Notes: generated by a model from the letters alone, not told the origin. Positions 53,656-63,109 are shown, numbered from the stretch's first letter. The stretch: 64,000 bases of DNA from Candidatus Obscuribacterales bacterium (GCA_965228855.1 CBDDIJ010000002.1:1376001-1440000), one strand, 5' to 3'. A program made the numbers and translations.

Positions 53656-54564
53656 TTGACCGGCAAGCTCTTTTCGAAACGACTGATAAAAGCGGCTGTG
53701 GTCTCGCTCGCTCTGTTGAGCCAGCTCTTTCCGTTCGCGGCCGAAGGACAGACAAACCGCTTGCCCAAAGCCGGCTTCCAACGATTTTCCGGAAATTTGC
53801 CGCCGTCGAATTCCGGCGCCGGAATAGGTTCAATTACAGGGACCGGGCTGTCGACACCTGGCGTTCATTTGACGTCCGGCATGGATCGCACACCTCGCAA
53901 TGCTCGCGAGCCATACAATCCTGGCGAGCCCACGTTAAACATGGCACTGGTGCGTTGGCAGCGTGAGAAGATGCCGTTGCGAATTTGGATAAGTCCCGGC
54001 TTGCAGCTTCCTCAAATACCGTTTGAGCAGTTGCCCTCCACCAGAGTCGAAACTGTTTTTCAAATGCTGCAACAAGAGAACCCGTTCTCCGACTTATCCC
54101 AAGCGGATGGCTGGAGTGAATCGGTAAATCAAAGCGTTGCTATGGGTATTGAACAGTGGCGGCAATTCGAGAACGAAGGTCTACTGCGTTTCGGTTTCAC
54201 TTCCGACCCGAGAACGGCTCATGTCCTTGTTTTCTTCACCGATCAGTTCCAGGGAGCAGCCGGACCAGGTGGTACCAATGTTGGTGCCTTGACCTGTGCG
54301 CAATTATTTACGCCGCAGCAAACTCAGATGGAGATGTATCGTCAAAAGCCTGTCATAATGGAGTTCTCCACGCGCGTGAATCACTTGCCTGAAAAAATGC
54401 AAGGATCTGCTGCGCATGAATTCGGGCACGCGCTCGGTATCAAAGCGCACAGTCCATATCGTGACGACATCATGTATGAAAACAACGTCGTGTACAACCT
54501 CTCAGAGGGCGACAAAGCCACCATCCGATTGCTCTACCGCGCTGAGCCAAAGTACGTGATGTAA
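53656..54564 (+). CDS. Exported matrixin-family (M10-like) zinc metalloprotease
   Basis: HEFGHALGIKAHS, Met-turn DIMY, LSEGD. Confidence 0.82.
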   Translation: MTGKLFSKRLIKAAVVSLALLSQLFPFAAEGQTNRLPKAGFQRFSGNLPPSNSGAGIGSITGTGLSTPGVHLTSGMDRTPRNAREPYNPGEPTLNMALVRWQREKMPLRIWISPGLQLPQIPFEQLPSTRVETVFQMLQQENPFSDLSQADGWSESVNQSVAMGIEQWRQFENEGLLRFGFTSDPRTAHVLVFFTDQFQGAAGPGGTNVGALTCAQLFTPQQTQMEMYRQKPVIMEFSTRVNHLPEKMQGSAAHEFGHALGIKAHSPYRDDIMYENNVVYNLSEGDKATIRLLYRAEPKYVM

Positions 54565-54572
54565 GGCAACCT

Positions 54573-56108
54573 TCAATCTGGCGAGGTCATAAGCAATTCT
54601 AACTGAACGATGGTGCCTTCGCCTGGCGCGGACTCTATTTTGAAGCGTGTTGGATAGAATGCTTTGATGATTTCGACGCGCTCTTCGATGCCGGGAAGAC
54701 CAAAGCCGCCATCGGTTTTTTCACCAGCGTTTGCAAGGTCGAAACCTTTTCCGTCGTCCTGAATTTTGAACGAGAGTGAACGCCCGTCCTTCGCTGAAAC
54801 CTGCACCAATATTGAGTCTGCGTCTGCGTATTTCTTGATGTTGTTCAAACACTCTTGAACGATTCGGAAGATGTGCAGTTGAACTTGTGAGGGTAGTTCA
54901 GGAATGGTGCCTTCGACTTCGAATGAACAATCCGCTTCAGTTTGTTCCGCGACTTTGTCGACGAGGTCCTGGAGGACGGTCTCCAGTCCCCAGTCTTTGA
55001 GGTCTCGGGGTACCAGACCGCTGCAGATGTCGCGAATGGACGTGGTCAGAGAATCGAGGACGTCTGCAATCTGTTCCGCATCTAAATCTTTGTCTGATGA
55101 AACCTTCCGTCGCAACATGAGGATGTCGGCGAGGACGCCATCATGGAGGTCTCGCGCGATTGTCGCTTGAGTTTCCTCTTGCTGGTTGAGAAGTTTGTGT
55201 ACCGCGTTCTGTTGTGCCATTAGCAAGTCGCGAACAAGGTCTTCTGCCGGTTCGGTTTCCAGAGAAACCGAATCTCGAAAGCCGCGACTGGCGCTGAAGC
55301 GAGCGATATTATCGACGTGCTCGAATTTGTGTCCACTTTCAGCGGCGACTGCATCCATGCAAGACAAGATGATCATATCTCTGAACAACATGCGCTGGAA
55401 TGAGCGAACGTCCGGCGCCGTTACCGGTAAGCCGTAAACAGTCCAGGCGTTGCCGCTTTCCAACGCTGCTAAACGCAAGGACAGTTTGCGTCTTTCGCGA
55501 GAGTAGGCATCATTGTCATTTAATGCTGAGGTTGATGGAGCGAGATTGAAATGGATTTTTCCAGGCTTACCGATGACTAGCAATTGTCTTGAAGCGGTTG
55601 CTAATCGAAAGTTGTATCTGATCAATCCTTGCTGTTTAGCGTCTTTGGTGAAACCTTTCCGGTAAAAATCTGAAACTGTGACTCGAACTCGTTGCGCTCC
55701 CTGCTGGGAGGCGATGGTATTAAAGGCGGTGCTCATCTCTGCGAAATATGAATACAATTCCTCTAGCATTGAGTCTGTGCTGTTCGACGCCTGCATCACA
55801 TTTATATATTCGCCGCGCTTACCGAACGCCACGCCAAGCTCGATATCGAAGTGGGTCGTGATTTCTGCGAGTCTGCGCATCCACGCCGACTGTCCACGCT
55901 TCTCTTCGAGAGTTAACTTTTCTGTTTTCTCTGCATCGTTGTCTCTTTGAAGCTCAGCCCGCTGCTGGATGTCGATGTCGAGCTGCTGAACGAGCTGTTC
56001 TTCATGTTGAAACTTGTGTTGGGTCTCATTCTCGCCGGCAAGCTTAATTAACAGGCTTCCAACTGACGAAAGTATGTTCGATAAGGGGTTGTTCGCCTTA
56101 TCATTCAT
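54573..56108 (-). CDS. Cytoplasmic HisKA_3-type sensor histidine kinase
   Basis: IARDLHDG, FRIVQECLNN, DDGKGF, GFGLPGIEER, SAPGEGT; no TM; TAATG coupling to the regulator. Confidence 0.88.
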   Translation of the reverse strand: MNDKANNPLSNILSSVGSLLIKLAGENETQHKFQHEEQLVQQLDIDIQQRAELQRDNDAEKTEKLTLEEKRGQSAWMRRLAEITTHFDIELGVAFGKRGEYINVMQASNSTDSMLEELYSYFAEMSTAFNTIASQQGAQRVRVTVSDFYRKGFTKDAKQQGLIRYNFRLATASRQLLVIGKPGKIHFNLAPSTSALNDNDAYSRERRKLSLRLAALESGNAWTVYGLPVTAPDVRSFQRMLFRDMIILSCMDAVAAESGHKFEHVDNIARFSASRGFRDSVSLETEPAEDLVRDLLMAQQNAVHKLLNQQEETQATIARDLHDGVLADILMLRRKVSSDKDLDAEQIADVLDSLTTSIRDICSGLVPRDLKDWGLETVLQDLVDKVAEQTEADCSFEVEGTIPELPSQVQLHIFRIVQECLNNIKKYADADSILVQVSAKDGRSLSFKIQDDGKGFDLANAGEKTDGGFGLPGIEERVEIIKAFYPTRFKIESAPGEGTIVQLELLMTSPD

Positions 56109-56728
56109 TATTCGGTATCCAGCTTGCCATAACCGTTTTCGACCGCCCAGGCAATCAGTTGCTCGCGATTGTCGAGTCCGAGTTTCAACAACAATAACTC
56201 GCATTGTTTACGCACCGTCGCTGGTGATGCGCCTCTCTCTTCTGCGATCTCGTGATACTTCATGCCTCGCGACAGTAAGGTAAGTACGTCTTGTTCAGCC
56301 TTGGTGAGCTTCTCTTTACCCATGGCAATACTCTGAGATTTCACAATCTTTCCGCCATTGGAAACGGTTTTGATTGCTTCGATCACGTTCGAGATACTTT
56401 CGCTCTTTAGAAGATAACCGGCGACACCAAGGTCTAGAATGGCTTGAACAAAAGCTCTTCTGTTTTCTGCCGAAAATACTATGACTTTACCGGGAAGTTC
56501 ACAGAATTTCTTTACCGTGCTGCGCGGACCTTCAGAACCAGGAAGATGTAAGTCCAGAAGAACGATATCGGGCGTTTTCTCCTTCGCGAGCTCCAGTCCC
56601 GTTATTGCGTCAGTCGCCTGTGCCACCACTTCAATATCGCTTTCCGCGTTAAGCGCGCTCGCCAGACCCGCGAGCGTGGCCTCATGGTCCTCGACAATTG
56701 CGACCCTGATGTTGGATTGCGAATCCAT
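56108..56728 (-). CDS. NarL/LuxR-family response regulator
   Basis: IVEDH, LLDLHLP, GYLLK, LTKAEQDVL..LSRG..EIA HTH. Confidence 0.92.
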   Translation of the reverse strand: MDSQSNIRVAIVEDHEATLAGLASALNAESDIEVVAQATDAITGLELAKEKTPDIVLLDLHLPGSEGPRSTVKKFCELPGKVIVFSAENRRAFVQAILDLGVAGYLLKSESISNVIEAIKTVSNGGKIVKSQSIAMGKEKLTKAEQDVLTLLSRGMKYHEIAEERGASPATVRKQCELLLLKLGLDNREQLIAWAVENGYGKLDTE

Positions 56729-56841
56729 AGCTTTTCCTTAACTGTGACGATGCCTACATTTATCCACTTAATTTCTTACTCTAATCAGACGGTTCTCAAT
56801 AAGCTATCATGACGTCCGAAAGAGAGTAAGGAGACTGAGAA

Positions 56842-57153
56842 ATGGAGCTGAAAACTTCCACGTCAAAAGCGGCGATGATGATGTTAACCACAGCCGCGCT
56901 GGCGGGCATGCTGACCGGATGTTCGGGAGGCGAAAAGGCCGCTGAAACATCGACTGAGAACTCCGCCACGGAAACTCCGGTTCCTGGTGCAACCCCGACG
57001 GAAGCGGGGACCCCGGCACAGGGCGCGGTGGCCGACAAGCACGACTGCAAAGGTTTGAACTCGTGCAAAGGCAAAGGCGGTTGTCACTCAAGCGATAACG
57101 GTTGCGTTGGCAAAAATAGCTGCAAAGGTAAAGGCGGCTGCAAGCACGGTTAA
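56842..57153 (+). CDS. MNIO-associated RiPP precursor (bufferin BufA2-like) with lipoprotein signal
   Basis: Lipobox LTG-C27; Thr/Pro/Ala/Glu linker; two CxGxNSCKGKGGC repeats; AAGGAG SD; first gene before DUF692. Confidence 0.85.
   Translation: MELKTSTSKAAMMMLTTAALAGMLTGCSGGEKAAETSTENSATETPVPGATPTEAGTPAQGAVADKHDCKGLNSCKGKGGCHSSDNGCVGKNSCKGKGGCKHG
57046..57141 (+). repeat. Two copies (57-nt period) of CxGxNSCKGKGGC
   Basis: CKGLNSCKGKGGC-HSSDNG-CVGKNSCKGKGGC. Confidence 0.9.
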
Positions 57154-57157
57154 GGAA

Positions 57158-58003
57158 ATGCCGGCTAATAGATTTAACGGCTTCAGCAGTTTAGGCATTG
57201 GTATTGGTCTGCGGATTGCTCATTATGAGCACATTTTGAAAGAAAAACCGCAGATCGATTTCTTCGAAATCATATCCGAAAACTTCATGCTCGGTGGAGG
57301 AAGACCTCTCGAAATACTCGATGAGGTTTTAGAACGTTATCCGATCATTCAGCACGGTGTGTCGCTTTATTTTGGATCCTTAGACCCTCTGGATACAAAT
57401 CAGATCGACGCGCTGAAGAAGCTGACTGAAAGAACGAAAACCCCGTTTGTCTCGGATCACCTGTGCTGGGGCAGTTTCGACGGCTCCTATTCACACGATC
57501 TTCTGCCTCTGCCCTATACCAAGGAAGCGGTTGTGAACACCGCCAATCGAATCAGGTTTGTGCAAGACAGCCTTGAACTACCGGTTGCGGTTGAGAACGT
57601 CAGCAGTTACCTTGAGTACACGGACTCTGAAATGACCGAGTGGGAGTTCCTTTCCGAAGTCTGTGAACTCGCGGATTGTGGCATCCTGCTCGACGTGAAC
57701 AATGTTTTCGTGTCAGCCCGAAATCATTCGTTCGATCCAATCAAATACATCGAGAACATTCCGCTGGATCGAATCGCTCAGATTCACATCGCTGGACATA
57801 GCGAGCAAGACGGCTATTTATTGGATACCCACGACAATTTTGTGCGACAGGAAGTTTGGCAAATCTATCGGTCCGTGATCGGGAAAATCGGTCCGACTAA
57901 CACTCTGCTTGAGTGGGACGCTCAGATCCCTGACTTCGAGATCGTCCATCAAGAGGCGCTTAAAGCTGCTCAGTATGCGGACTCCGGTGGAATAAGCGCA
58001 TGA
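57158..58003 (+). CDS. Multinuclear non-heme iron-dependent oxidase (MNIO, DUF692/UPF0276; BufB/HvfB-like)
   Basis: GIGLR..H, FEIISENF, HGVSL, SDHLCW, DLLPLP, ENVSSY, LLDVNNV, QIHIAGH, DTH, LLEWD. Confidence 0.94.
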   Translation: MPANRFNGFSSLGIGIGLRIAHYEHILKEKPQIDFFEIISENFMLGGGRPLEILDEVLERYPIIQHGVSLYFGSLDPLDTNQIDALKKLTERTKTPFVSDHLCWGSFDGSYSHDLLPLPYTKEAVVNTANRIRFVQDSLELPVAVENVSSYLEYTDSEMTEWEFLSEVCELADCGILLDVNNVFVSARNHSFDPIKYIENIPLDRIAQIHIAGHSEQDGYLLDTHDNFVRQEVWQIYRSVIGKIGPTNTLLEWDAQIPDFEIVHQEALKAAQYADSGGISA

Positions 58004-58911
58004 GTGGTAAGCATTCGCTTCGGCAAATCCAGGAGTTTATGTGGCAAGCCGTCTCTCGCCCCTTAAACGCTGACTACTCGAGTAAGAGGCGCTGGACAGA
58101 CGGGAGGAGCTTCGGGGTGACGGCGAGCGAATTTATTAAACCGAATGAGAAACTAACCAGTGCTCAACGCGTACAAATATACAATCAGCAGTATTGGTAT
58201 CGTTTGCTCGATTGTTTGGAAGATGACTTTCCTGGTCTGAGAGCTGTTCTCGGAGCTAGCGGTTTTCTAAGATTAGCAAGAGAGTACTTGAATGAGTATC
58301 CTTCACGTTCCTTCTCGCTTCGCGATCTGGGATGCGATTTGCCCGAGTTCGTTGACGCACGCCAGGATTTGATTGCTCCCAACGTCACACTCTGTGGGGA
58401 GTTGGCTCGATTCGAGTGGGCCCAGGTCGTTGCCTTTGATGGACCTTCATTGGAACCAATCGATGATGAGTATATTCGAACCGCCAATCCCGAACTACTG
58501 AAAGTTTCTCTCCAACCATATTTGACTTTGCTGGAGTTGACTCACGCACTCGACCATTATTCAGTTGCTTTGAACCGCCACATGCGTGATCGCAGCGAAG
58601 CGGGTAGCAGTAAATGTGAGGCGGAAAACGTGGTGCCAGATTCCGAGTCGGCACCATGGCCGGTGCTGGAGCATGTTTATCTAGTTGTTCATCGTCACGA
58701 AAATAACGTTTACTTTAAACGAATTGATGCACCTGGTTTCCTCATACTCACTGCGTTTGCTCGCGGTCAAAGTCTGAGCGAAGCGCTAAATGACGCTGTG
58801 TCGTTTATGCAAGACAATGCAATTCCGCTCGAAGGTCTGCAGAGTGATATCCAGAAATCATTTGCGCTGTGGAATCGCTTAGGTTGGCTCTGCAAAACAG
58901 AAATGGTTTAA
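58000..58911 (+). CDS. MNIO partner protein (DUF2063; BufC/HvfC-like)
   Basis: RVQIYNQQYWYRL...DFP.L, YL..YPS.S..L..LG, ELARFEWA; ATGA overlap with the MNIO gene. Confidence 0.88.
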   Translation: MSGKHSLRQIQEFMWQAVSRPLNADYSSKRRWTDGRSFGVTASEFIKPNEKLTSAQRVQIYNQQYWYRLLDCLEDDFPGLRAVLGASGFLRLAREYLNEYPSRSFSLRDLGCDLPEFVDARQDLIAPNVTLCGELARFEWAQVVAFDGPSLEPIDDEYIRTANPELLKVSLQPYLTLLELTHALDHYSVALNRHMRDRSEAGSSKCEAENVVPDSESAPWPVLEHVYLVVHRHENNVYFKRIDAPGFLILTAFARGQSLSEALNDAVSFMQDNAIPLEGLQSDIQKSFALWNRLGWLCKTEMV

Positions 58912-58962: not shown

Positions 58963-61900
58963 TTAGTGGGGACGTTCGCTAGATAGTGCCGAGATTGGAA
59001 CCGTGAGATGCACATCTCGGGCACCGTTGGCGGTGCTGACCAGTTTCGGAATGAATACATCAGCTGAGGGATCGAGCTTGTGGCCGCTCACGCTTATGTA
59101 ACCGCGCGCGGCCATTCCGGCATCAAGGCTTTTTACGGGAAATTTCACGTCCGCCAGCTGATCCGGCATGCCAATCATTCTGACTACTGCTTTGGTTGAA
59201 GACGGAATTTCCAGGGCTTGACCCGTTCCATTCCTCAGAATTACGTTAATGCGCACCCCGTTGGGTTTTACATTTACTCCAGCCAATTCGAGATTGACGA
59301 TTGGCGAGGCCTCTGACGAGAACTGCGGGAGCGATGACACATTCGGAATCGAGCTCAAAGCCGATGATGCCATATTCGGTGCAGCCGTAGTCGAGTTAAA
59401 TGCGCTTGGTCCGCCGTTGGGTACGAAGCCTGCTGGGGGAGAACTAATTTCGTTCCCCTCAGGCGCACTCTGGGATCCCGCGTCTGAAGAAGCCGAACTC
59501 TTAGATTCCTTCGAGTGTTTTACCTTTTCGGCTTTTGGAGCTTTGGCGACTTCAGTCTTCGATGACTTCATCTTTTTGGCCGTTTGAAGTGAAGAGTTGA
59601 ACATTGACTCGCGAAGCATCTGAAGCTCTTTCCGCGTATCTTCGAGCTGAGATGACAAATCCTTATTTTGAGCTTCGAGTGAACTCAACTTGTCCAGATT
59701 GTCCGGATTAGCAGTTTCACTTGCCATTTGATTCGGCAATGCCGACTCGCTCGTTGTTGACGCGGAGGCTGCTGCACCTGCGGCAGCTGAGCCTAGCGCG
59801 CTGAGTCCAGTCGCTCCAAGAGCGGATGTGGCTGACGAAGTACCTGCTGACGCTTCAGCAGCAGTGCTCGAAAGGTCAGCTCCTGCGACTGACGACGTAG
59901 CCTCGCTTACGGCGGGGACGCTCAAAGCTGGCGGTGTGTTGGTGGTTGATACACTGGATGGCTTCGATGCTATAGCTGTTGCGTTGGACGCTTTTGTAGT
60001 TGCCGGTTTCGCTGCTGCCGGTTTCGCGACCGTCTTATTTACGCCTTTAGCCGTGGCTAGCTTGGTCGCTTTAGGATCAGCTTTTGCCATGTCGACTTTC
60101 TTGACCAGCTGTGGAGTCGCTTTCGTCGTCACAACGTCTTTTGCTGTTCCGGTAGGGCTGGTTCCGAACTTTGCCTGTTGTTTCGCTACGTGCTCCTTGA
60201 GCATCTTGGAGTATTTGTCGATGTCTTCTTGCTTCAAATTCGCCAGCTGTTTATTAATCAAGCCTGGCGCCTGGCTCATGAGTTGCGGTGCCTGTTGCAC
60301 AGCCTGGCTCGCCATGCTCTGCATGGTCGCCGGGTCCATTCCTAGAGAACGCGCAATGCCTGAAAGCGCCTGAGGTGACAGCTGTTGTGCTTGAGCCGCC
60401 AGAGCATTCATATCGATACCGCCGGCTTGAGGTGTTGCCGAAAATCCAGCCGGATTCGAGTATGCTGCTTGCGGTGCGGAAAGTGGTTGCGATGCAGCAG
60501 CAGGGCCGAAACGAGACGGCGCTATCGGCGGAATCACTTCCGGAGTATCTGCAACTTTTAAGACCGACTCGCTGCTTCTGGTTGGTGCGCTGAGAAGGGA
60601 GTTATTCACTGCCTTTTGCGAATTAAATTGATCGAGCGAAGGTGGAATGCTTCCGGATGACAGCGGGGGAGCCGACCGCAATGCTTCCGATAGGCCGCCT
60701 GGCGCCGAGCTCAGCGAGCTGCTTGTTGTGGGTGCACCACCCGTGGTGCCGCCGGATAGCAGTCTTGATATGTCGGATGCCGAAGTAGCACCTTTAGAGG
60801 ATAGCGCCGACGCTGCACCAGCTGCAGGGCTTGTCGCGCCCGAGCTTGAAGCTCCCGCACTGGAGAGGAGTTTTTGAACATCCGCTGACCCAATCATCTT
60901 ATCAGGCAGACCGGGCAAGGTGGCGTCCGGCGGAAGTTCTCCGAGTGCTGCAACTTTGCTTTCTGACTTGGTTTTGCCATGCAATGCATCGAGAACGGAA
61001 TCTTCCTGTTTCTGCAATTCCTTCTTTTGCAGGAGCATGTGGTTGCGAAGTTGTCCCAGGAATCCACTCATGTTTTGAACTGGATCGGCTGTCGGAATCT
61101 GAGTCGTTCCAGGCGCTGCCGGTAATGTCGCCAGTGCTGGTCCTTCAACACCTCGCAAGCGTGGAGTGCCAAGTGCGGAGTAGAGCGCGCCGGCAGATGC
61201 TCCTTGTGCCAGCGCTCCGGCAGCGGCATCCAATGCTCCCGCCTGTGTTTGCAAACCGTCGCCAGTCGCCGCCCCGAGCGGTCCGCGCAACGATTGTGCT
61301 GCTTCGCCGGCAGACAGATGCTCCGTCAATGCCTTGACTTTCTGTGCTGCAATCAGATTTTTTGGATCCTGACGCAGGACTTCCATATAAAGGTGTTTGG
61401 CCTCCGGAGCATTGCCGAGACGCTCGGCTAGCTCAGCCTGGTACAGCCTGAATTTTACGTCGCCAGGGCTCAGTGAAACACTCTCGGCTGCTTTATTGAA
61501 TGCCTCTGGAACCGCGCCGCTCGCATCCAGGGTTTTAGCCGCCTCGTACGTTTTTTGTGCTTCCTGTCGAGCTAGTGCGAGTTTGAAACTCTGGCGAGCG
61601 GCAGGAAGGTTTGGATGATTCGGTTCGATGCTCACGACTGTTCGGTAGGCGTTTTGCGCTGACTTCAGATCGCCGGAAAGTTGATACGCTCTTGCCAAAC
61701 CGAGGTGCGAATTGGCATCTTTCGGTCGCAGTGAAACCTGGCGCTGCCAGAGTTCTACAAGCGTCTGACCTGCCAGTTTATCGCTCTGGTTTAACACCAA
61801 TGCTCTACTTAGATCCGTATTCGCGCCGACCACATCCTTGAGTTTGTATCGAACGATCCCAAGCTGACGCAGAGCTACTGCGGATTCTGGATCTTTATCG

Positions 61901-62958
61901 AGAGCCAATTGATAGTTTGTTTTGGCGTCCTTTAGTTTGTTCTCGCGCAGCGATATGTTTCCTAAACCGATATAGGCGCCAGTGGAATGGTCTGCTTTCA
62001 ATGCTGCATCGTACTCTACACGGGCCTCTTTGAGTTTCCCTTGTGAAAACAAAACATCGCCGAGTTTGACGCGCGACATGGAATGGTTGGGTTCGATACC
62101 GTGATGTCGCAGAACTTGTTCGAGTACATGTTTTGCCTCTGTGTTGCTGCTATTGTGCGCAAGGGCAATGCGAGCCTGTTTCGCGCCTTCGACATAATCA
62201 TCGTGGCGGACGTAATACTTTGCTCTGTCGAGACTGACTTGAGAAAGCTTGGAGTCGATCGCCGCATTCTTAGGATAGACTTTGTCGTACTTTTCTAGAA
62301 GTTCTTGCGCTTGCTGCAGCTTACCTTCTTTGACGAGCTGGTCGGCATGGGCGACAACGTTGGCCACTGTCGAATGTTCAGCGCCGAGCTTGTACGCCTT
62401 TGTATTGCCGGAATGTTTGTCCGTGCCTGTGGGGCGCGTTGGATCGCCGTTTGTGGTTTGATATCCACTAGATGAAACTGTTGTGGCTGCTGCGCTCGCT
62501 GTGGAACCCGTGCGTGAAACTATGGGTGGTGCCGACGGCGGTGGAGGTATATCTCCGGCCATGCTAGAGGGCAAAAGGCTTGGTGACACCGGAGGCGGTG
62601 GCGGAACCAGTCCCGAGCTGTTTGAAATCGAGGAGTGGGGCACGGCTGTGGATGTCGTGCTGGGATAGCTCGCCGAATACGAGGACGATGCTTCGCCATA
62701 ATTTGACTCATACCCGGCCGGTATGCCGGCTTCTCTTCCGCCGGAAGTGCCATAGTCGTATCGTCGCGGAATCGTTGTCGCTGGGACAACTACCTTCTTT
62801 GCGTGCCGGAAGTCCGCGGCATCGCATTTTTGAGTGCTGGCGTTGATGACCGGTGAGACCAGAGCCACTGTTAACGCCAGTGCTATTTTTGTTTTTGCGC
62901 CATTGCCGAGGCAGTCTCTTTGAGATGCGTCGATTGAATTTGTTTTTTCTTTTGCCAT
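58963..62958 (-). CDS. Large exported TPR protein with low-complexity regions, coiled coil and C-terminal beta domain
   Basis: Signal-like segment; about 8-9 TPR units (e.g. AYIGLGNI, SHLGLARAYQ); Ala/Ser/Pro/Thr-rich stretches. Confidence 0.75.
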   Translation of the reverse strand: MAKEKTNSIDASQRDCLGNGAKTKIALALTVALVSPVINASTQKCDAADFRHAKKVVVPATTIPRRYDYGTSGGREAGIPAGYESNYGEASSSYSASYPSTTSTAVPHSSISNSSGLVPPPPPVSPSLLPSSMAGDIPPPPSAPPIVSRTGSTASAAATTVSSSGYQTTNGDPTRPTGTDKHSGNTKAYKLGAEHSTVANVVAHADQLVKEGKLQQAQELLEKYDKVYPKNAAIDSKLSQVSLDRAKYYVRHDDYVEGAKQARIALAHNSSNTEAKHVLEQVLRHHGIEPNHSMSRVKLGDVLFSQGKLKEARVEYDAALKADHSTGAYIGLGNISLRENKLKDAKTNYQLALDKDPESAVALRQLGIVRYKLKDVVGANTDLSRALVLNQSDKLAGQTLVELWQRQVSLRPKDANSHLGLARAYQLSGDLKSAQNAYRTVVSIEPNHPNLPAARQSFKLALARQEAQKTYEAAKTLDASGAVPEAFNKAAESVSLSPGDVKFRLYQAELAERLGNAPEAKHLYMEVLRQDPKNLIAAQKVKALTEHLSAGEAAQSLRGPLGAATGDGLQTQAGALDAAAGALAQGASAGALYSALGTPRLRGVEGPALATLPAAPGTTQIPTADPVQNMSGFLGQLRNHMLLQKKELQKQEDSVLDALHGKTKSESKVAALGELPPDATLPGLPDKMIGSADVQKLLSSAGASSSGATSPAAGAASALSSKGATSASDISRLLSGGTTGGAPTTSSSLSSAPGGLSEALRSAPPLSSGSIPPSLDQFNSQKAVNNSLLSAPTRSSESVLKVADTPEVIPPIAPSRFGPAAASQPLSAPQAAYSNPAGFSATPQAGGIDMNALAAQAQQLSPQALSGIARSLGMDPATMQSMASQAVQQAPQLMSQAPGLINKQLANLKQEDIDKYSKMLKEHVAKQQAKFGTSPTGTAKDVVTTKATPQLVKKVDMAKADPKATKLATAKGVNKTVAKPAAAKPATTKASNATAIASKPSSVSTTNTPPALSVPAVSEATSSVAGADLSSTAAEASAGTSSATSALGATGLSALGSAAAGAAASASTTSESALPNQMASETANPDNLDKLSSLEAQNKDLSSQLEDTRKELQMLRESMFNSSLQTAKKMKSSKTEVAKAPKAEKVKHSKESKSSASSDAGSQSAPEGNEISSPPAGFVPNGGPSAFNSTTAAPNMASSALSSIPNVSSLPQFSSEASPIVNLELAGVNVKPNGVRINVILRNGTGQALEIPSSTKAVVRMIGMPDQLADVKFPVKSLDAGMAARGYISVSGHKLDPSADVFIPKLVSTANGARDVHLTVPISALSSERPH

Positions 62959-63109
62959 CGCCACGACGAAGTCCGAGCCTTTGGGCCGTAAGTCCCGTTC
63001 TGTCTGAGCGCCTCTAGCGCCGAGTCTATTGTATTAAACTTCCATCTCCTTACAAGGGGGAAAGTACGGTTAAGACGCCGAATGACCGATAGGCTGGCTT
63101 TTCGAAATC

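Follow-up and report, generated by a model that had tools for sequence, protein, structure and literature searches.

Can one small protein combine modification by an MNIO (DUF692) enzyme with a lipid anchor, and if so, is such a protein a new kind of system or a variant of a known one? The question is raised by a three-gene locus in a 64,000-nucleotide stretch of DNA from Candidatus Obscuribacterales bacterium (GCA_965228855.1, CBDDIJ010000002.1:1376001-1440000), the whole of which we refer to as the window. Reading of the window placed three open reading frames (ORFs) on the plus strand, in the same direction and at the coordinates expected for bufA, bufB and bufC (Table 1). The bufA stop codon TAA (57151-57153) is followed by a 4-nucleotide gap, GGAA, and the bufB start codon ATG at 57158, while bufB and bufC overlap in ATGA (58000-58003). 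The precursor–MNIO–DUF2063 operon with this gap and overlap, as a first-pass annotation of the same DNA had described it, was confirmed in coordinates and strand. As judged from its sequence, the bufferin operon bufABC is intact and of Buf2 type, with good support for a lipoprotein precursor, and we consider it probable that it represents a bufferin (captophorin) system of this type, the product of which would sequester copper as a lipid-anchored mini-protein in the cell envelope.

Table 1. Features of the bufABC locus and its surroundings, in window coordinates.
Feature	Position	Strand	Remarks
bufA	56842..57153	+	Precursor, 103 amino acids (aa), with lipoprotein signal, tether and a six-Cys core of Buf2 type
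Predicted Sec/signal peptidase II (SPII) signal peptide	56842..56922	+	From sequence and hydropathy, conservation, lipobox rule and shuffle controls
Lipobox L24-T25-G26-C27	56911-56922 (Cys codon 56920-56922)	+	End of the predicted signal peptide
Low-complexity tether, residues 28-68	56923..57045	+	41 aa; 41-89 aa across the genus
Core C69-C100	57046..57141	+	Two CxGxNSCKGKGGC repeats, spacing x5-x5-x6-x5-x5
bufB	57158..58003	+	MNIO (DUF692) bufferin maturase, 281 aa
bufC	58000..58911	+	DUF2063 partner, PME1 type, 303 aa
Candidate -10 hexamer TATCAT	56805..56810	+	TA..AT in 7/7 aligned intergenic regions; putative
NarL/LuxR-type response regulator	56108..56728	-	Divergent, 113 bp from bufA; link unproven
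NarQ/UhpB-like histidine kinase	54573..56108	-	No transmembrane segment; link unproven
Matrixin-like (PF00413) peptidase	53656-54564	+	Apparent signal peptide; three genes upstream of bufA
TPR protein	58963-62964	-	1,333 aa, long low-complexity regions; convergent on bufC

The pairing of BufB with BufC is textbook knowledge, and both members could be recognized here. BufB passes the cut-off of the bufferin maturase model NF050167 (336.7 bits; cut-off, 310), matches PF05114 with an E value of 1.4e-102 and finds 3BWW (E = 5.9e-51), TglH and MbnB in the PDB. It scores below the cut-off of each of the HvfB, ApyH, ChrH and MbnB family models, on which ground ChrH or methanobactin chemistry was rejected. 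Residues H66, H101, E146, D179, N182, H210, D223, H225, E252 and D254 are invariant in all 14 aligned homologues; we take the conserved motif residues to be metal (iron) ligands. Within the motif, D254 stands where FonB has its catalytic base D249; FonB itself lies outside the alignment.

BufC contains PF09836 (DUF2063) above cut-off, as do all 16 of its aligned homologues, five of which also give weak matches to PF22106, and hhalign returned 98.5% over 214 columns for BufC against the partner protein of an Asticcacaulis bufA2 cluster. A sequence search of the PDB with the BufC alignment gave no genuine match; a fold search with the predicted structure (pLDDT 89.4) did, its best matches being NGO1945 (3DEE; full-length, E = 3.9e-06) and TglHI chain A, and the modelled fold of BufC is like that of NGO1945/TglI. 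The captophorin study gives 3DEE as the reference PME1 structure (PMC13097082). The two features required of a Buf2 maturation pair, an adjacent bufferin-group MNIO and a DUF2063 partner with an RRE-like C-terminal domain, are thus both present.

The precursor BufA carries its cysteines in the order C69-x5-C75-x5-C81-x6-C88-x5-C94-x5-C100. All six are invariant in the eight same-genus precursors, in which the core is the best-conserved part and the tether the least. The two Cys repeats of the first-pass annotation were borne out, whereas the flanking histidines to which it drew attention are only partly conserved among these precursors (H67 in 5/8, H82 in 3/8 and H102 in 7/8), which rules them out as conserved ligands. 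The core motif has no other copy in the genome, and the 36-aa core found no match among plasmids (tblastn). NF050166 (BufA2) is the sole significant profile match of BufA. As controls, three proteobacterial BufA2 passed this model at 92–100 bits; all six core cysteines, together with GxNxCKG and CKGxG, align with these three proteins, and the spacing from Cys I to Cys V is the same. The last core loop, before Cys VI, is x5 where all three have x12, seven residues more. This short-loop core was seen in all of the best 120 of 6,097 homologues and in 80 of 80 precursors of named loci; judged from these sequences the short-loop subgroup is large, the two sets having been chosen by likeness to the query and showing that it is large rather than what its size is. 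An AlphaFold model of the precursor, built on the eight-sequence alignment, reached a pLDDT of 46.5 and a pTM of 0.14, values too low to inform on the Cys I–VI disulfide.

Two other identities of the precursor were set aside. Buf1 (DUF2282, four Cys) disagrees with the six core cysteines and with the lack of any Pfam match of the precursor at E 0.1, and the oxazolin/HvfA type with the lack of EGKCG in the precursor and with scores of 253.8 against 360 for NF003818 and 41.9 against 142 for NF050145. BufA has the six cysteines by which Buf_6/12Cys bufferins are recognized in PMC11626156 and PMC12452194. The operon shows the testable published features of that group; the NCBIfam BufA2 cut-off (NF050166, 60 bits) is not reached.

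At its N terminus BufA has a basic n-region (K4/K9) and an uncharged h-region (residues 10-26) that ends in the lipobox, followed by a tether rich in Ala, Thr, Glu, Pro and Gly. Lipoboxes were called by a strict and a relaxed rule made for this analysis. The real sequence passes the strict rule. Among shuffled versions it was passed by 14 of 100,000 when residues 2-68 were permuted and by 1,463 of 100,000 when residues 10-30 were; of the long ORFs in the genome, 32 of 4,076 pass. C27 and the surrounding MLTG are invariant in the eight same-genus precursors, in which the tether varies between 41 and 89 aa, so that the LTG-C lipobox and the tether of about 40 aa that had been proposed earlier hold. 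In orthologous clusters of five genomes of the family (G008, G011, G014, G015 and G020) the same h-region runs into a non-lipobox end without the Cys; the lipobox is therefore a switch within one signal-peptide family. BufA has the N-terminal Sec-type signal (SPI or SPII) of Buf2 precursors, as called from its n- and h-regions and the lipobox rule, and both marks of a DAG-RiPP are found, a lipobox Cys in an MNIO substrate and a host Lgt/LspA/Lnt pathway. In the host genome (G000) lgt and lspA are each present once, whereas the lnt genes that score above the TIGR00546 cut-off number five and are spread over several contigs.

On these sequence grounds the lipoprotein form of BufA is real; it is not special among bufferins. 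The relaxed rule is passed by 39, and the strict rule by 17, of the best 120 of 6,097 homologues, among them the single-domain seven-Cys proteins P0023 and P0107 with tethers of 41–44 aa. Among the best 80 of 567 named loci, ten pass the relaxed rule, five of which form a separate Verrucomicrobiota group (support 88) on a quick MNIO tree of 64 rows, for which alternate named loci, four additional ones and some of the family loci were taken.

From their homologues, BufB and BufC would be expected to form a cytoplasmic di- or tri-iron complex that would oxidize core cysteines of BufA to 5-thiooxazoles, at a loss of 4 Da each. By analogy with Caulobacter Buf2, C75, C81, C88 and C94 would be modified and C69 and C100 joined in a disulfide, a change of -18 Da overall. 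The modified precursor is predicted from its signal to be exported by Sec, to receive a diacylglycerol on C27 from Lgt and to be cut after G26 by LspA, and an Lnt paralogue probably N-acylates the lipoprotein. In the resulting 77-residue protein a flexible tether would carry the chelating head, which may bind surplus Cu(I)/Cu(II) outside the cytoplasm. The unmodified peptide C27-G103 has a calculated monoisotopic mass of 7416.31 Da, lipid not included. The direct basis of this mechanism consists of the gene anatomy, the family scores of BufB and BufC, the active-site residues, the lipobox and the lgt, lspA and lnt genes.

The Caulobacter vibrioides buf2 operon (CCNA_03001-02999; PMC11626156) is alike in gene order, a six-Cys exported precursor, a BufB-type MNIO, a DUF2063 partner and the lack of DoxX. 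Its product is reported to be 18 Da lighter, with the central cysteines at -4.03 Da each and Cys I/VI likely in a disulfide, to absorb at ~305 nm and to protect against copper (bioRxiv 10.1101/2024.03.18.585515, PMC11626156). The window operon differs in its Obscuribacterales host, in a lipobox and long tether instead of Caulobacter's cleaved Sec signal, in Ala for Asp after the catalytic Asp, and in a divergent two-component pair with no SigF/NrsF nearby; the seven-residue-shorter loop was judged against the three proteobacterial BufA2, the Caulobacter protein not being among them. Six-Cys DUF692 clusters had been recorded earlier (PMC8692599). Captophorins of the Cys-Lys group likewise combine an MNIO, a PME1 protein (3DEE fold) and a Cys-Lys precursor (PMC13097082), and differ from the window operon in lacking a lipoprotein precursor and in having Asp, not Ala, at the position of FonB Phe250. 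The captophorin study argues that all characterized MNIO–PME1 systems yield 5-thiooxazoles (Gadgil et al. 2026, PMC13097082).

For the lipid anchor, the likeness is to lipo-NedABC of Neisseria dentiae and to lipo-DybAH, in which a cytoplasmic MNIO step is followed by Lgt, LspA and Lnt (PMC13056109). The study that defined the DAG-RiPPs showed lipidation together with MNIO modification for triacylated DybA and the oxazolin NedA, and ranked a subset of bufferins with predicted SPII signals among predicted DAG-RiPPs (Chen et al. 2026, PMC13056109). For NedA, copper sequestration at the membrane is proposed there. The two differ from BufA, NedA by its EGKCG repeats and DybA by a CPACGMG macrocycle. 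Predicted lipoprotein signal peptides are reported for ~16% of Buf2 bufferins (Antoine et al. 2025, PMC12452194), a class of which the window precursor is an example. The window operon could thus be described, by analogy, as like Caulobacter Buf2 plus NedA-type lipidation; it belongs to the known bufferin kind and is not a new kind of system. The reading of the first-pass annotation, an MNIO-modified, lipid-anchored metal chelator, gains in mechanism from the family scores, the conservation and the host lipoprotein genes, and loses its claim to novelty, having already been predicted in print. That the known products are all soluble is out of date now that lipidated DybA and NedA have been shown (PMC13056109), and the lipoprotein form, offered as possibly new, is that already predicted for ~16% of Buf2 (PMC12452194). 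In the literature searched we found no experimentally characterized lipidated Buf2; 'Obscuribacter' was not found in the MNIO literature searched, but the lineage may already be named in supplements to PMC12452194, PMC13056109 and PMC13097082.

Of 61 related genomes, 15 were found to have a BufC orthologue, each of them a member of the host's family, and 43 to have an MNIO of some kind; in all eight genus genomes bufB and bufC are intact and closely joined. Among the best 80 of 567 named genome records, the top two are Candidatus Obscuribacter sp. and Obscuribacterales bacterium, and the other 78 are mostly Acidobacteriota and Verrucomicrobiota; BufB lies downstream of the precursor in 74, and BufC in 71, of the 80 named loci. 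On the quick tree BufB shares a 52-row clade (support 100) with MNIOs of short-loop clusters that have six or twelve cysteines and belong to Acidobacteriota, Verrucomicrobiota and Planctomycetota, and the eight genus BufB sequences form a clade of their own (support 98), while two further MNIOs of the same genome fall outside BufB's clade.

Other MNIO genes were met along the way. One of the host genome (G000:C5:55603-56388, locus L008), 43% identical to BufB, lies behind a signal-peptide precursor; precursors of this second type have 2–9 tandem EGSCKG-like repeats with a Lys/Glu-rich linker and may constitute a Cys-Lys repeat precursor family. The type is common in the family (L039-L050, L054-L057, L065 and L070), and the window BufC has no match at most of these loci. 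A distant MNIO (G000:C2:1704268-1704906) follows a protein ending in CGMG, like the published Melainabacteria mel (ChrH-like) cluster. Another (G000:C5:1042109-1042885) stands behind a membrane protein whose tail is rich in Gly and Cys and which presumably resembles TIGR04222. In G030 (L068) and G026 (L069), MNIO-containing ORFs of ~600 aa stand behind other Cys-repeat proteins, with repeats of ~14 and 9–10 residues and one Cys in each.

The neighbouring genes bear on how the operon might be controlled. The first-pass annotation had listed DoxX, a protease, a transporter and an extracytoplasmic function (ECF) sigma gene as not adjacent; none adjoins the operon, as it said, but the PF00413 peptidase three genes upstream went unmentioned and the divergent response regulator and histidine kinase, 113 bp away, were overlooked. 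This regulator–kinase pair lies opposite the precursor in the window, in G002–G007 and in G009 and G012 (where the regulator match is partial); in G001 the pair and the precursor are near the ends of separate contigs. It does not adjoin the non-lipoprotein clusters of G008, G011, G015 and G020, while the 0.8 kb of upstream DNA available in G014 allows no judgement there. Only two of the best 80 of 567 named Buf2 loci have the pair, both from Obscuribacterales, and it recurs in G021 and G029, where the window BufC query gave no match. The pairing with bufA is lineage-specific, and, as the genomes that carry it are kin, the link might go back to a single ancestral insertion. Throughout the genus, and also in G009, G012 and G021, the peptidase gene is found in synteny with the pair; synteny of the TPR gene holds at most loci of the genus and extends to G009 and G012. 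Both are about as syntenic as the pair itself.

The kinase has a maximal 19-residue hydropathy of 1.08, hence no transmembrane segment was called, and a CusS-like periplasmic copper sensor, whose architecture we take to require one, was rejected. The 113-bp intergenic DNA holds two conserved blocks, one beside each gene, in the seven aligned intergenic regions. The block near the regulator start, CTACATTTATCC ... TAATCA (56755-56790), is present in 7/7 of them and is probably the promoter of the response-regulator gene. The candidate -10 hexamer on the bufA side was not picked up by a consensus promoter scan, and the promoter and terminator scan gave fewer sites than shuffled sequences did. 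The arrangement suggests two promoters more than a shared operator, and two-component control of the operon is a possibility that we hold to be doubtful. Sigma/anti-sigma (NrsF) genes are reported for Buf1 clusters and not for Buf2 clusters (PMC12452194). Of the regulation earlier suggested as possibly new, the absence of sigma genes is accordingly a known trait of Buf2; the divergent pair is there, its control of the operon unproven.

DoxX is absent from the locus, the genome having three DoxX genes elsewhere. Among close short-loop clusters, 69 loci were complete and 62 of these offered a candidate ORF as the next gene; on scanning, 45 of the 62 proved to be DoxX, and the host's family has therefore probably lost it. 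No DoxX was seen at the three proteobacterial BufA2 loci, and Caulobacter vibrioides buf2 also does without; the missing DoxX, put forward as possibly new in the first-pass annotation, was accordingly dropped as a novelty.

Several observations weigh against assignment to Buf2 and against the copper-sequestering role. BufA obtains 31.1 bits (E = 2e-07) with NF050166, short of the cut-off of 60, as do all short-loop relatives tested, at 28–42 bits; short-loop precursors are for this reason probably annotated as hypothetical proteins. With the shorter last loop, the Cys I–VI disulfide and the fold might differ. Next to D254, BufB has Ala255, whereas Asp is reported at this position for MNIOs of the Cys-Lys group. 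The flanking genes that were scanned included none for copper resistance. A search of the genome for LolA (PF03548) gave no match, but it detected the family in only 5 of 14 controls and is too weak to decide between inner- and outer-membrane placement of BufA. The Buf2 heterocycle, by the account of PMC12452194, has not been directly assigned structurally. Relatives with two or no core cysteines, finally, raise the possibility that anchor and tether may serve without chelation.

Loop and alanine could be accommodated by the same lipidation and MNIO chemistry with another pattern or metal, that is, five or six cysteines modified without a Cys I–VI disulfide, another soft metal, or a role in oxidative stress. 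The x5 loop makes Cys VI a copy of Cys III, two- to four-Cys precursors stand beside orthologous BufBC in relatives, and the bufferin papers themselves propose roles beyond copper (PMC12452194). This explanation nevertheless has to contend with a Cys I–V spacing identical to that of canonical BufA2, and with the report that the characterized MNIO–PME1 systems all make thiooxazoles and generally bind Cu (PMC13097082). At the specificity position, 60 motif-bearing MNIOs of named loci have Asp in 50 cases and Ala in ten, so that 50 of these relatives with the same short-loop precursors keep Asp; FonB-F250A still produced thiooxazole (PMC13097082). We regard a different pattern or metal as quite unlikely. 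If, by contrast, BufA were cleaved by signal peptidase I or released by a protease, the product would be an ordinary soluble periplasmic Buf2. No lipobox is found, even by the relaxed rule, in 81 of the best 120 of 6,097 homologues and 70 of the best 80 of 567 loci, and the matrixin-like peptidase is a syntenic neighbour. Yet the peptidase is syntenic in G021 too, where the BufC query gave no match, and the LTG-C lipobox is canonical, its Cys invariant while the next residues vary, with a chance occurrence of at most ~1.5%; a soluble product is highly improbable.

The last of the points against the Buf2 reading comes from a series at the divergent regulator–kinase site, where the core has six cysteines throughout the genus but is reduced to two in G009 and G012 and to none in G029. 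The two-Cys lipoproteins (L067:3083-4882 in G009 and L038:5053-5445 in G012) are accompanied by intact bufBC, with BufB and BufC of G009 apparently in one ORF of ~600 aa. A coreless lipoprotein of G002 (L032:5317-5628) is a tandem copy directly upstream of bufA, and that of G029 (L152:8602-9009) stands alone opposite the pair with no bufBC beside it. On this pattern the main job could reside in the anchor and acidic tether of an envelope lipoprotein, perhaps controlled by the pair, to which the bufferin head would be a dispensable addition. But within the genus it is the core that is most conserved and the tether least, and bufB and bufC remain intact and tightly coupled in 8/8 genomes; moreover, the coreless proteins, which have an acidic repeat tether, keep the BufA-type signal, and the simplest reading is therefore decay of BufA copies, in genomes that are kin and not independent. 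We think it very unlikely that the head is dispensable. An undescribed short-loop, lipid-anchored Buf2 branch of Obscuribacterales, with another modification pattern, switched by the regulator–kinase pair instead of an ECF factor and with an anchor/tether role of its own, is also unlikely.

For the lipid-anchored Buf2 reading, the compact three-gene operon offers an easy and apparently untested candidate for a lipidated Buf2 bufferin. Its importance is modest, lipidated Buf2 bufferins having already been forecast in print (PMC12452194). The family provides a natural series, in which the same h-region comes with or without the lipobox Cys, the tethers measure 41–89 aa and the precursors have six, two or no core cysteines, and which is suited to asking how membrane anchoring contributes to copper buffering and what minimum number of cysteines is enough.

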